Source: Pyrodictiaceae archaeon
GTDB taxonomy: Archaea; Thermoproteota; Thermoprotei_A; Sulfolobales; Pyrodictiaceae
NCBI GenBank assembly: GCA_027036135.1
Contig: JALVSY010000030.1
Location: 128,001 to 192,000 of the forward strand
DNA length: 64,000 nt
Reading direction: 5' to 3'
The translations under genes and the position numbers were made by a program. Under the pieces are notes generated by a model. The model had not been told where the DNA came from and searched no databases. It saw only the letters and a program-made list of their open reading frames with translations. Positions within the stretch are counted from its first letter, which is position 1. Each line of letters opens with the position of its first letter. Shown piece by piece: positions 22,750 to 59,254 of the stretch.

Positions 22750-22827
22750 GGGCCCGTCGTCTAGCCTGGTTAGGACGCCGCCCTGACACGGCGGAGGTCC
22801 GGGGTTCAAATCCCCGCGGGCCCACCA
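22750..22827 (+). tRNA. tRNA-Val(GAC), intronless, CCA encoded
   Basis: Acceptor GGGCCCG/CGGGCCC, anticodon arm CCGCC-CTGACAC-GGCGG, T arm GGGG-TTCAAAT-CCCC, ends ACCA. Confidence 0.97.
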
Positions 22828-54806: not shown

Positions 54807-55511
54807 TTACTTTGATGGCTTGTACCTGGCATAGACCATTGCGTGGTCTTTGTCGAATGGCTCTAAGTGCACCATGTCTACTATCTCGAATCCTCGTTCA
54901 CGTAGAACGTTTATCTCGTGTTTGAATACTTCACTAGGCTCCTTGGTTACATCAATACTTCTTGCCTTGATGGCTAGAAGTAGGTATCCGTTTTCCTTTA
55001 GGAAGTAGTCAGCATTATCAGCTACTATTGCTGCTTGTTCAGGCTGGGCCACATCAGCATAGATTCCGTCAACAAGTTCCACTATATGACGATACTCATA
55101 CGGTTTCCTGGCATCATTTAGCAATGGGTACATATTGGGCCTGGTTTCACATACCGCTACTAGTTCTCTCATAACTCTAGGCGCAACATCAAGTGCATAT
55201 ACCTTGCCCTCTGGGCCCACAATATCAGATACATGGCTTGGAGTTGTACCAGTTGCAGCACCGAGGTATAGTATGCGATGACCCCTCTGTATTGGTAGCT
55301 CCTCTATCCCCTTTAGTAGAGCTGCTGCGAGCTTGCTTCGATACGGATTCCATTCCCTGAGCTCTAGTTCTCCCCACTTGAAGAGTCGTTCACCGTAAAC
55401 TCTCTTACCAGGAGCAAGGTTTACCGTAGCTAGCCTAGTGGAGCCGTCCTCTAGCTCAACTATGTATACTCCCTTATACTTTTCATGCTCTTTTACACTT
55501 ACAACCTCCAT
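54807..55511 (-). CDS. flpA: Fibrillarin (C/D sRNP 2'-O-methyltransferase)
   Basis: [42 protein letters not shown]. Confidence 0.96.
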
Positions 55512-55567: not shown

Positions 55568-56818
55568 TTATCTCCTGCCCTTTCCTCTGCCACCTTTTCT
55601 TCTTCCACGTCTTCCTCTGCGAGGCCTTGCGGGCTTTGCTGGCTTGACTTCCTCCTTCTTCCTCTTCGGGGGCTTGGCGTAGATTCTCTTTATCTCTTCT
55701 ATTCTCTTGCGTAGAGCTTCTTTCAGCTTATCTCCTATGAACCTGCCGGTGAAGTAATCTACCTTTGCGGCTATGGCGAGCTTAGCTGCTAGAGCCCTAG
55801 CTATCTTACCTCTCTGCCACCTAGGGCTTCTATGTATGTCTGGGTACTGGAATATGACTCCATGCTTTGGCGGTTTACCTCCTGTTCTTAGTGCTCGGAA
55901 TAGTGCCTTCTCTGCACCTAGTACTTGTATAGTGCTTGCGGGCAGGAAGGCTAGCTCCTCTAGGCTACCAGCTAGGCTTATGAGCCTCGCACCGAGTAGT
56001 GGACCAACAAGCGCTGTTATGTTTGGCGCGACTTCTTTCATTACTTGGGCTATGTAGTCTGACAAGTCTCTCCTAAGCTTGTATAGGTCTAGAGTTATTC
56101 TTGCGAGTCTCTGCATAGGCTCTATATCGAACTCGGGGTAGTCTGCACCCATACTCTTCTTTGCTGCCTCTGCTATTTTGCGTGCCTTCTCCTCGCTAAA
56201 GCCCAGCTTTACTAGGTTCTCAACTGTTATATTATCTCTATGACCAAGCTCCGCCACTATGCGCACATAGTCCTCGTGCTCTCTTACTAGGTCATCGAGT
56301 TCGGGAAAGTGTAGGCTGTACCATTCGCGAAGCCTTGCTGCGAACAAATTGGTTGTTTTGTCTATATCGTCTATGGCTCTTATAGCCTGTGCTGCTAATA
56401 GGTCGCGCTTTTGTGCAGCTCTTCTAAGCTTTCTACGTGTTAGCTCTAGCGTAAATTCGTGTAGGAGGCTGTAGAAATCCTCTATGCTCTTAACGAATCC
56501 GGTGTCAACGGCTATTTCTGCTGCCTTCTCTCTAACATACCTAGCTATAGCATTAGCTGGCTCAACTGATACCTCGAATCCTTTTCCTGATGCTATCCTT
56601 GCCTCCTCATTTGTCTCAACTACTAGCTCCTTTATTCCCATCTCCTTAAGCTTCTCGAGCAAGTTGAGAAATGCCGCTGCAGCCTCGCCACGTTCTATCT
56701 TAAGGGCTTCCTCAACCATGTCGTCAAGGTTTTTGGGCCCATGTACATATGCAACTATATCCTTATTCTCGTTCACCGCATAGCTACCAGTTAAATGGTC
56801 AACAACATAGATTTTCAT
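55568..56818 (-). CDS. nop5: C/D sRNP protein Nop5 (Nop56/58)
   Basis: REWYSLHFPEL, PASTIQVLGAEKALFR, PKHGVIFQ; GGAGGT RBS before ATG 56818. Confidence 0.96.
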   Translation of the reverse strand: MKIYVVDHLTGSYAVNENKDIVAYVHGPKNLDDMVEEALKIERGEAAAAFLNLLEKLKEMGIKELVVETNEEARIASGKGFEVSVEPANAIARYVREKAAEIAVDTGFVKSIEDFYSLLHEFTLELTRRKLRRAAQKRDLLAAQAIRAIDDIDKTTNLFAARLREWYSLHFPELDDLVREHEDYVRIVAELGHRDNITVENLVKLGFSEEKARKIAEAAKKSMGADYPEFDIEPMQRLARITLDLYKLRRDLSDYIAQVMKEVAPNITALVGPLLGARLISLAGSLEELAFLPASTIQVLGAEKALFRALRTGGKPPKHGVIFQYPDIHRSPRWQRGKIARALAAKLAIAAKVDYFTGRFIGDKLKEALRKRIEEIKRIYAKPPKRKKEEVKPAKPARPRRGRRGRRKGGRGKGRR

Positions 56819-56918
56819 GACTGCTTTTACCTCCTTTCTAAACCCATTAGTTGCTAGCATTGCAGAGGAGACTATTTTAAGCATTCGTTTTTACTTATGA
56901 AAAGAGGGGCTTATCAAC

Positions 56919-57275
56919 ATGAACGAGAAATCAGATGAGCCGCACCAGCTTCCGGAGAACAAGAAGCTTGCTATATTCGAGGGAGAGGCCCGTGTAGGTG
57001 AAGTGATGCAGGGTATACAAGCGATTCAGTTAAGACCCGAGGACCTATCAAGCCCCATAGCATTGCAAATGGCTTTGTCTAGAATGTATGAAGCAGTAAT
57101 GAAGATGCTTGAATCTGGGCCAAAGAAGCGCTACATAGCAGAGGTCAGATTTACTGATAGCCTAGGGAACCCAGTTTCCTTTGCTGTTGATCTGGGCGAA
57201 TCACCTCCACCTTTCTCAAGGGATAAAGTAAGGGCTAGAATAATAATCGAAATATTTGAGGAAGAAGAGAGCTAG
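56919..57275 (+). CDS. Hypothetical protein
   Basis: Coding-like ORF with RBS, divergent from nop5. Confidence 0.6.
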   Translation: MNEKSDEPHQLPENKKLAIFEGEARVGEVMQGIQAIQLRPEDLSSPIALQMALSRMYEAVMKMLESGPKKRYIAEVRFTDSLGNPVSFAVDLGESPPPFSRDKVRARIIIEIFEEEES

Positions 57276-57682
57276 CTATTAGGAATACATTTTATTCTAA
57301 ATCCGAGTCTTTCAATAACACTACTTAATTCTGCGCACGCATTGCTATCGGAGAGCATTATTGCTGCATTAGTTTCATCATAGTATGCGTCAATACCTCT
57401 GCGCTTCAAGCGATTAGCCAAGTAATGACCTAGAGCTCTTCCTAGTACACTGTCTACGTCTTTAACTTTATAGACTAATGGCCTAACTCTTTCTAGATAA
57501 CCTTGTCTAACAAGTGTTCTCAATAATCTTGAGGCTAGTCTCTTTGAACCCGTTAGCACATATAGCACGTCAATCGCTTCGCCAGCATTTATTTCTTCTA
57601 GGCCATTGTTTTTAGCATAAAGTAGAAGCATATAATATGCTAAGAATTCCCTTCTCTTAGGCCATCTCTTCGTAATGCCCAT
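57272..57682 (-). CDS. Winged-helix hypothetical protein
   Basis: ASRLLRTLVRQGYLERV...YKV wHTH-like pattern. Confidence 0.55.
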   Translation of the reverse strand: MGITKRWPKRREFLAYYMLLLYAKNNGLEEINAGEAIDVLYVLTGSKRLASRLLRTLVRQGYLERVRPLVYKVKDVDSVLGRALGHYLANRLKRRGIDAYYDETNAAIMLSDSNACAELSSVIERLGFRIKCIPNS

Positions 57683-57758
57683 ACTCTTCCACGCTCTCCA
57701 TTAATCAAGAAGTGCCTTGAACCTATTAACCCCCATTCACGTTATTTCGCAACGGATA

Positions 57759-57824
57759 CCGATGAGGAACCATGTAAGGGTTGAGCCCCTATTAAGCTAT
57801 GATATATAACCAGGCTGCTGAGGG
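57759..57824 (+). ncRNA. Box C/D guide sRNA with both guides matching tRNA-Val sequences
   Basis: C ATGAGGA 57762-68; guide ACCATGTAAGGG; D' TTGA; C' ATGATAT; guide ATAACCAGGCTG; D CTGA 57818-21. Confidence 0.78.
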
Positions 57825-57831
57825 CAGCGAT

Positions 57832-58590
57832 ATGCCGACCTATGATAAAGGTGACTACGCTATACCCATTGAGCATATAATTAATATGAGCGATGATTAT
57901 TTTCTCCAACTTATAAGCAGCATGTTAGGCTTAAATGATTGCGACTGCACTATGGTTGACTACCCATCAATCGTATCTGCTAGGGTGGGTAGGCATGTTA
58001 TAGATATTGTATTAGGTCAAGGAAGTATTGTTTGCAAACAAGGATGCAAGGAAATAGCCCAAATAGGCATACCAGTGGTTACACTCGCGTCCTCTAGCTG
58101 GGTCTACGGCCGCATAATCAAGCATAGAAAATGCTTTGTGACAGAAAAGTCTTTGGAACATATCTCAAAGCTTTCTCCAATACTCAGAGATAGCATAAAC
58201 TGGGTAATTACGAGCTTTAATGACCTCATGGAGCGTGTTGCTAAGGAGAAAGTTAAGGCGTTCTCGTTTATTCTTCCTGAATATGGTCCTCTTAGCTTTG
58301 TGCAAACTAAGTGCTGCGGACAACTTTACTCTCCAAATCCTTTACTGCATCCAGGCGCCGTTTTTGGAAAATCACGAGAAGAAGTATGCGTAAAAACATG
58401 TACTAAGATACTGGGTCCTTTCAGAAAGAAAATTATGCCCGTACTATCTATCGGAGAAGATCCAATCATTGCTCTTTATCAGGGCATGGGAGAACTTCTC
58501 CTAGCGAGTATTGCTCTTAACGATATACCTAATAACATAACCAAATCGCTTATACTTTCGCTAATTTATACATGCAGTGAAGGAGATTAG
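57832..58590 (+). CDS. Cys-rich hypothetical protein
   Basis: Long ORF overlapping taw3; start moved to ATG 57832, downstream of the sRNA. Confidence 0.55.
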   Translation: MPTYDKGDYAIPIEHIINMSDDYFLQLISSMLGLNDCDCTMVDYPSIVSARVGRHVIDIVLGQGSIVCKQGCKEIAQIGIPVVTLASSSWVYGRIIKHRKCFVTEKSLEHISKLSPILRDSINWVITSFNDLMERVAKEKVKAFSFILPEYGPLSFVQTKCCGQLYSPNPLLHPGAVFGKSREEVCVKTCTKILGPFRKKIMPVLSIGEDPIIALYQGMGELLLASIALNDIPNNITKSLILSLIYTCSEGD

Positions 58591-59254
58591 AATGAATACG
58601 CTTATTCCTACAAACTGCAACTCTACTAATTGGATTAATATACGCAATAAATTTCTAGAATCTCTTAGAGAGGCTATGACAAGACACCTCATAGACGAAG
58701 ACATAATAGACATACTGATGCTGCTGAACTCGATACCTTGTATTGTCACATCAAGTTCTTGTAGCGGACGCATAGCGTTATTTGCAGCCAATGCTCCAGG
58801 AGATAAAAAGAGAGGAGGAATAGTTGCTAAATGGCATAAACCCATAAGAGTGGATGAGTTACTTCAAGTCCTTAGAGGAGCTAGACTTGACAATTATAAA
58901 TTTGTATGGGTATCTGCGCAGCCATTAATATTAGCTCTCTATACTTGTAGCTTGCCTATTGCTAACGAGCTACTTAGAGTAGCTGAGCGTCTAGGATTAA
59001 AGTACTCCGGGATGAAGATTAGAGAAGACGCGATCTACATAATGATCTTGGGAACAGAGAGAGTAGATATCCCATTACGCGTAGATAATAATATTTTTAT
59101 AGACTTAGATAATATTAAAGAAATTAGTTCTATCGTTAATATTCTTAATACTTATTTAGTGCTAGCTAAGAGAAAATTAGCTAGGTTAAAGAGGGGGCTA
59201 GCTGCATCACTAACTTTGGTTAGGAGGGAATGTGAAGAAGCTACCCTATACTGA
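58577..59254 (+). CDS. taw3: tRNA(Phe) wyosine-derivative methyltransferase Taw3/TYW3
   Basis: IDEDI, TSSSCSGRI, KWH, QPLIL, G.K.SG, TERVDIPL. Confidence 0.88.
   Translation: MKEIRMNTLIPTNCNSTNWINIRNKFLESLREAMTRHLIDEDIIDILMLLNSIPCIVTSSSCSGRIALFAANAPGDKKRGGIVAKWHKPIRVDELLQVLRGARLDNYKFVWVSAQPLILALYTCSLPIANELLRVAERLGLKYSGMKIREDAIYIMILGTERVDIPLRVDNNIFIDLDNIKEISSIVNILNTYLVLAKRKLARLKRGLAASLTLVRRECEEATLY

Follow-up and report, generated by a model that had tools for sequence, protein, structure and literature searches.

A 64,000-nt stretch of an archaeal genome, here called the window, was analyzed for a predicted small RNA gene and its surroundings. The window is G000:C30:128001-192000, and the genome to which it belongs (G000) comprises 40 contigs, is 2.2 Mb in length, and has 50% G+C content. 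A predicted box C/D sRNA gene of ~66 nt lies on the forward strand at ~57758-57825 and reads in the order C box, guide, D′ box, loop, C′ box, guide, D box. Upstream, reverse-strand genes encode fibrillarin (54807..55511; PF01269, 355.6 bits), Nop5 (55568..56884; PF01798, 253.8 bits), and, as the immediate neighbor, a putative small HTH protein with weak Pfam matches only (57272..57682). Downstream, on the forward strand, a conserved 252-aa ORF (57832..58590) starts 10 nt past the D box. Its last 14 nt are overlapped by a gene for a TYW3/Taw3-type tRNA wyosine methyltransferase homolog (58577..59254, + strand; PF02676, 123 bits; NCBIfam Taw3, 96.7 bits, below the cut-off of 200). The 252-aa product has no Pfam or NCBIfam family match and no usable protein-atlas match; its gene sits between the tRNA-directed sRNA and the Taw3-type gene. 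The sole tRNA found in the window is tRNA-Val(GAC) (22750..22827, + strand), identified using ARAGORN and Rfam.

The consensus of the C box is RUGAUGA and that of the D box CUGA, and spacers of ~12 nt between C and D′ and between C′ and D are typical of archaeal box C/D sRNAs. The C box of the window copy, ATGAGGA (57762..57768), matches the consensus at six of seven positions, the variant being position 5. It is followed on the same strand by the 12-nt D′ guide ACCATGTAAGGG (57769..57780), the D′ box TTGA (57781..57784), a 14-nt variable loop GCCCCTATTAAGCT (57785..57798), the C′ box ATGATAT (57799..57805), the 12-nt D guide ATAACCAGGCTG (57806..57817), and the D box CTGA (57818..57821). Boxes were assigned from the sequence, with alignment A1 in addition for the C′ box. 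Both spacers measure 12 nt with no deviation. The internal D′ and C′ boxes are degenerate and retain their GA dinucleotides, and the layout is that of a symmetric double guide. The terminal stem of the C/D K-turn pairs ACC (57758..57760) with GGG, followed by C, at 57822..57824, the latter strand being placed by stem covariation. G57761 and the first two bases of the C box would make the 3-nt bulge of this K-turn. The ends of the loop, GC...GC, form the short stem of the C′/D′ K-turn, and U1 of the D′ box can, as read from the sequence, pair with A6 of the C′ box. This anatomy is established, and the same elements that the original prediction had laid out at 57759-57824 were found when the sequence was read again.

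The start of the downstream gene was corrected from 57799 to 57832. Homologs do not conserve the ATG at 57799, which falls within the C′ box, and the 263-aa ORF that begins there thus has a spurious 11-codon extension. It had been proposed that the ORF track hides the sRNA within such an N-terminal extension, and the conserved start at 57832 bears this out. An ORF of at least 238 aa starts 5–28 nt past the D box in 16 of 20 loci examined, with products that are similar by eye. The segment ATGATATATAAC at 57799-57810, which comprises the C′ box and the beginning of the D guide, is TATA-like and is absent from most homologs. Read by eye, it suggests that the sRNA gene may overlap the promoter of a leaderless downstream mRNA.

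The C/D and C′/D′ motifs of such RNAs fold as K-turns that bind L7Ae, and Nop5 and fibrillarin assemble thereon. The protein machinery is present, L7Ae also being encoded in the genome (PF01248, 112 bits). The Nop5 ORF is 0.9 kb away from the sRNA and the fibrillarin ORF 2.3 kb. Spacing between sRNA and fibrillarin is 2.1–2.5 kb in 13 genomes of family f1 and ~16–31 kb in the genomes of family f13 that were compared. Like spacing was found at 11 of 80 public fibrillarin loci, all within the 12 closest. The position of the sRNA near nop5-fibrillarin may reflect either functional linkage or plain synteny.

Homologs were sought using BLASTN with a 91-nt query against 40 relatives. Matches were obtained in 17 genomes and are confined to the proposed RNA (query positions ~15–80); flanks and loop are unrelated. 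All 18 BLAST homologs, window copy included, were parsed as C(7)-12-D′(4)-loop(8–21 nt)-C′(7)-12-D(4), and the D′ guide core CCATGTAAGG is identical in 17 of the 18. Invariant columns of alignment A1 are the GA cores of the boxes, the guide cores, and T, G, and A at C′ positions 2–4. Positions 2–11 are conserved in both guides of this alignment, and positions 1 and 12 are variable. Structural work indicates that archaeal C/D RNPs form at most ~10 guide-target pairs, a limit that the conserved 2–11 pattern fits.

Covariation was observed in both K-turn stems. The terminal stem (alignment columns 1–3 with 72–74) is 88% paired, and two of its three pairs change on both sides. The internal stem (columns 28–30 with 45–47) is 82% paired, with two-sided changes at all three of its pairs: GC...GC in the window is replaced in homologs by GG/CC, CC/GG, CGGC/GCCG, or CTA/TAG. 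Over the K-turn stems, 85% of cells are paired versus 63% in shuffles, the covariation score is 0.499 versus 0.163, and the observed values were reached by 0 of 500 shuffles. Sliding the 3′ stem partners drops pairing to 36–50%. Judged from these sequence comparisons, conservation and covariation place the element far beyond chance, and it is almost certainly a real box C/D sRNA.

A covariance model, R1, was used for a wider search. With R1, the RNA was recovered from 18 of the 19 genomes in family f1, and 118 of 151 genomes of the order gave a match at E ≤ 0.01; the weakest of these matches may be other C/D RNAs. The order searched evidently also contains genomes labelled Desulfurococcales and Sulfolobales. 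Forty-nine further R1 matches were inspected by sequence in batches of 17, 20, and 12. These come from families f1, f2, f3, f4, f7, f8, f10, f12, and f13 of the order and from families f15, f16, and f17 of the class, and in all 49 the first guide retains GTAAG and the second (A/G)(A/G)(C/T)(C/T)(A/G)GGC. At E ≤ 1e-4, R1 found no match in class families f14 (0/7) and f18 (0/9). Of 67 parsed homologs, 60 have an xTGAxxx C box immediately ahead of the 12-nt spacer, 53 keep the D′ register (xxGA straight after 12 nt), and 58 have their D box in register.

Three tRNA-Val genes, UAC, GAC, and CAC, were found in the genome using ARAGORN. Their sequences differ at nucleotide 34 only, and introns are absent from all three. 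The D′ target, tRNA-Val(UAC), is encoded at G000:C30:108686-108763, 19 kb upstream of the window, and tRNA-Val(CAC) on contig C16. Positions 30–41 of tRNA-Val(UAC) are CCCTTACACGGC. The D′ guide pairs with 10 of these 12 nucleotides, and guide A faces C38 and C41. Pairing is contiguous for eight nucleotides from the D′ side, and the core (guide positions 2–11 against tRNA nucleotides 31–40) is paired at 9 of 10 positions, the exception being guide A against C38. Conserved between this genome and its close relatives, this A·C mismatch leaves the D′ duplex core with seven contiguous pairs plus two, close to the minimum for archaeal guides. The original prediction had called for aligning the guides with tRNA-Val(UAC) extracted from the genome; in that alignment CCCUUACA is present at 30–37. 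The D′ guide therefore puts U34 at N+5, the nucleotide paired five upstream of the box, and can discriminate isoacceptors. tRNA-Val(GAC) is not a predicted D′ substrate because its nucleotide 34 is G facing guide A. Its sequences, CCCTGACACGGC at 22781-22792 and TAGCCTGGTTA at 22762-22772, agree letter for letter with those first given.

The D guide was aligned with T13–A21 (TAGCCTGGTTA) and forms 11 of 12 pairs, with one G·U at position 13. Its core is fully paired (10/10), guide positions 2–11 facing tRNA-Val nucleotides 14–21 (AGCCUGGUUA), and C17 is at N+5, as had been claimed. tRNA-Val(GAC) is accordingly listed here as a predicted D-guide substrate at C17. The target scan covered 16S and 23S rRNA and every ARAGORN tRNA <220 nt, spliced and unspliced, in all 64 targets that total 10,085 nt. 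Among these stable RNAs, both guides score best on tRNA-Val(UAC). The D guide also pairs at 11/12 with tRNA-Thr(GGU) and at 10/12 with several others, Ile, Pro, Cys, Ser, and Met tRNAs among them. The description of the RNA as dedicated to tRNA-Val therefore goes a little too far for the D guide of this genome. Matches to rRNA were considered and set aside, the best being 9/12 for the D′ guide and 10/12, G·U pairs included, for the D guide. An alternative target with U at the mismatch was also sought: the exact 10-mer CCTTACATGG occurs at three other genomic places, none in stable RNA, and ~4 genomic occurrences are expected by chance on our own estimate.

The ACCA end of the guide had been proposed to pair with a 37/38 intron. 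This proposal fails, as tRNA-Val(UAC) is intronless and guide A against C38 is a plain A·C mismatch. An intron does occur elsewhere, in one genus only. In genus g53 of family f13, tRNA-Val(UAC) carries a 14–15-nt intron beside the anticodon (at L152 of G145 and L162 of G117), and the guide of this genus pairs equally with the intron-bearing pre-tRNA and the mature tRNA. In the genome of the window, ARAGORN called two intron-containing genes as tRNA-Stop(tta) (G000:C7:282279-282396) and tRNA-Pyl(cta) (G000:C30:291222-291330). Both are probably ordinary tRNAs with a misjudged intron position.

Random 12-mers were scored against the same 64 targets. Ten of 10 Watson-Crick pairs over positions 2–11 with a paired N+5, the score of the D guide at C17, were reached by 18 of 3000. 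The score of the D′ guide at U34 is 9 of 10 with a Watson-Crick N+5, and at least 9 of 10 was reached by 374 of 3000, so that the D′ match is weak taken alone. Both guides thus have at least 9 bp and a Watson-Crick pair at N+5. On tRNA-Val(UAC) itself, a random core reaches at least 9 of 10 at a rate of 0.0017 (200,000 trials). The telling point is that one 78-nt RNA is hit by both guides.

The sRNA and its own tRNA-Val(UAC) were obtained together for 37 genomes. Mean Watson-Crick pairs over guide positions 2–11 are 9.24 for the D′ guide and 9.38 for the D guide. tRNA position 38 is A in 18 genomes and faces guide U in all 18; it is C in 19 genomes, facing guide A in 16, G in 2, and U in 1. 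At position 37, G (7 genomes) faces guide C in 6 and U in 1, and A (30 genomes) faces guide U in 28 and A in 2. In the D-loop, C at position 17a (2 genomes) faces guide G in both, U at 17a (35 genomes) faces guide A in all 35, and C at 20a (4 genomes) faces guide G in 3 and A in 1. Both guides keep step with their own tRNA-Val(UAC) as it changes, at no fewer than four target positions (37, 38, 17a, and 20a). The guide A opposite U34 is unchanged in all homologs compared. In G106, the D-loop that matches its D guide is present in the UAC isoacceptor alone among Val tRNAs, which argues that the sRNA follows tRNA-Val(UAC) in particular. The genomes are related and not independent, so these covariation counts overstate the number of independent events. 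Guide-target co-evolution is nonetheless taken, from the aligned sequences, as the decisive evidence. The case is an unusually clear natural one: the target tRNA hardly varies, and the guide mirrors each of the few changes it has undergone.

Several irregularities accompany this pattern. The A·C38 mismatch (guide A57777) is kept in 16 of 19 C38 genomes, though a pairing G is used in G153 and G051. A D′ box with xxGA in the 12-nt register is missing from 14 of 67 homologs. The D′ box is shifted by one base in G011, G017, G009, G016, G020, G078, and G060, and is degenerate, with no GA, in G051, G196, G128, G201, G163, and G121. D′ spacers of 11 or 13 nt with an unchanged guide core were found at loci L088, L089, L093, L097, L099, L136, and L137. 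Were the N+5 rule strict, such spacers would present A35 or U33, not U34, for methylation. The D box is shifted by one in family f16 and genus g29, which moves N+5 from 17 to 17a; the loci recorded with such a shift and an unchanged core are L134, L135, L178-L180, L185, and L186.

Taken together, the sRNA likely guides Um34 in tRNA-Val(UAC) and Cm17 in tRNA-Val. From its anatomy and conservation, we infer that it is expressed as a small RNA, assembles into an RNP, and directs both methylations. L7Ae would bind both K-turns, followed by Nop5 and fibrillarin. The D′ guide would pair with nucleotides 31–40 of tRNA-Val(UAC), opening the anticodon stem-loop and placing the ribose of wobble U34, paired five upstream of D′, in the fibrillarin active site. 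The product at position 34 would be Um34 or the 2′-O-methyl form of a base-modified U. As the Val genes differ only at nucleotide 34 and N+5 must be Watson-Crick, modification of position 34 should be specific to the UAC isoacceptor. The D guide would pair with D-loop nucleotides 14–21 with C17 at N+5, giving Cm17; in this genome it fits all three tRNA-Val species and possibly tRNA-Thr(GGU) too. Because both sites are buried in folded tRNA, the substrate of the RNP is probably nascent tRNA or tRNA that has yet to fold. The gain would likely be rigidity of the wobble nucleotide and D-loop at very high growth temperature.

Three other explanations were weighed. A real C/D sRNA in which the D guide alone is active, as a general Cm17 D-loop guide, with the D′ guide an orphan or a binding anchor, is unlikely. 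It draws on the fuller core pairing of the D guide (10/10 versus 9/10 with an internal A·C mismatch for D′), on the fit of the D guide to Thr(GGU), Ile, Pro, Cys, Ser, and Met tRNAs at 10–11/12, and on the off-register or degenerate D′ box in 14 of 67 homologs. Single-guide use is also common elsewhere, at ~80% of tRNA-targeting sRNAs in Pyrobaculum as described by Lui et al. (2018, PMC6009581). However, conservation of D′ guide positions 2–11 equals that of the D guide, and in several lineages the D′ guide has changed in step with tRNA positions 37 and 38. The D guide of G106, moreover, follows the D-loop specific to Val(UAC) and not that of other Val tRNAs. Some of the same irregularities would suit an RNP that acts mainly as an RNA chaperone or in quality control of tRNA-Val(UAC), holding two segments, with methylation secondary or absent: the sites that the two guides bind lie 17 nt apart on a single small RNA, most C38 genomes (16/19) retain the A·C mismatch, and the methylation register is not strict in those 14 homologs. 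This reading is very improbable, since U34 is exactly at N+5 in 53 of 67 homologs, the guide A facing U34 is never altered, and no observation demands more than standard guide function.

It is scarcely credible that there is no RNA gene here and that the element is a promoter or 5′-UTR element of the downstream conserved ORF, with boxes arising by chance. The element does end 10 nt upstream of the conserved start codon, and the segment of C′ box and guide, ATGATATATAA, is TATA-box-like when read by eye and lies ~25 nt upstream of the ATG at 57832. However, a different gene follows the element in G005 and G145, no long ORF follows it in G009 and G031, and copies in family f13 retain both guides in another context. 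The stems covary, the guides change in step with a tRNA whose gene is at another genomic locus, and a promoter would account for none of these observations. A dual guide for U34 and C17 of tRNA-Val(UAC) is thus the preferred reading.

A second C/D-like RNA is encoded in the same genome at G000:C7 ~424084-424134 (+ strand). It consists of ATGATGA, 12 nt, a weak D′ box, ATGAAGA, 12 nt, and CTGA. Its D guide pairs at 11/12 with tRNA-Val(CAC), with C34 at N+5, and its other guide fits best to 23S rRNA with several G·U pairs. The alignment suggests that Val(UAC) and Val(CAC) each have their own wobble guide in this genome. In its target, C34 of tRNA-Val, the second RNA parallels Pyrobaculum sR45, which is known here by its description.

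Rfam 15 at gathering thresholds identified tRNA only, and no C/D family, across the whole window. The best sub-threshold matches were sR34 (13.7 bits versus 40) and sR9 (12.4 bits versus 36), and Rfam models of Pyrococcus sRNAs match at box level only, at 8–14 bits versus gathering thresholds of 35–54. Full-text literature searches turned up neither this family nor a named guide for U34 of tRNA-Val(UAC); the supplements of Lui 2018, Dennis 2015, and Wolff 2020 may list this RNA, for example, as an orphan. The main account of Dennis et al. (2015, PMC4644070) covers 489 sRNAs, for which tRNA complementarities are described as not compiled.

The closest known arrangement is a Sulfolobus C/D sRNA that guides U34 and G18 of tRNA-Gln(UUG), both methylations having been observed according to Wolff et al. 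(2020, PMC7668247). It is credited to Ziesche et al. 2004, as cited there and in Somme et al. (2014, PMC4105751). Like the window RNA, it is a dual guide on one tRNA with wobble U34 and a D-loop nucleotide as sites. By its description it is set apart in acting on Gln and not Val, and on G18 and not C17, and with a different tRNA and D-loop site its guides must differ. In Pyrobaculum, the position-34 guides described by Lui et al. (2018, PMC6009581) each have a single tRNA target: sR26 for Trp, sR27 for U34 of Gln, sR45 for C34 of Val, and sR46 for U34 of Thr. That account calls it rare for both guides to act on one tRNA and gives sR46 as such a case. The window RNA resembles sR45, sR27, and sR46 as an isoacceptor-specific wobble guide, and sR46 in having both guides on the same tRNA. 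It differs from sR45, compared by description only, in targeting U34 of Val(UAC) and not C34 of tRNA-Val.

More distant parallels are also described. Four Pyrococcus guides for position 34 are summarized by Breuer et al. (2021, PMC7994747). These share with the window RNA the C/D-guided 2′-O-methylation of the first anticodon base; by that summary, they belong to Euryarchaeota and act on other tRNAs, the Trp guide being an intron of its own target. Human SNORD97 and SCARNA97 guide Cm34 of elongator tRNA-Met (Vitali and Kiss 2019, PMC6601510) and are likewise C/D RNPs that act on a tRNA wobble ribose. As described there, they are eukaryotic, and two cooperating guides in different nuclear bodies act on C34 of tRNA-Met. 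Given the published wobble guides and the tRNA-Gln dual guide, both the mechanism and the dual-guide layout are already known, and the window sRNA reveals no new mechanism. It apparently represents a deeply conserved, undescribed sRNA family of a well-known kind.

The family yields two specific predictions for hyperthermophilic Thermoproteota: Um34 confined to tRNA-Val(UAC), and Cm17 in tRNA-Val. A methyl, most probably 2′-O, on C or A at position 17 of Sulfolobus acidocaldarius tRNAs is described by Wolff et al. (2020, PMC7668247), who also state that a few monomethylated tRNA nucleotides of this species still await a guide or enzyme. The RNA is a candidate guide for this orphan position-17 methylation. 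A broader view, held tentatively and rather doubtful at present, is that a single dual-guide sRNA has tracked tRNA-Val(UAC) across an entire class of Thermoproteota, would rank among the oldest and most stable tRNA guides, and would be the missing position-17 guide. On this view, the retained A·C38 mismatch and the pair of binding sites on one 78-nt substrate may indicate that the RNP handles the unfolded tRNA as a unit. If so, the two methylations could be cooperative or sequential with built-in product release, as opposed to the work of two independent guides.
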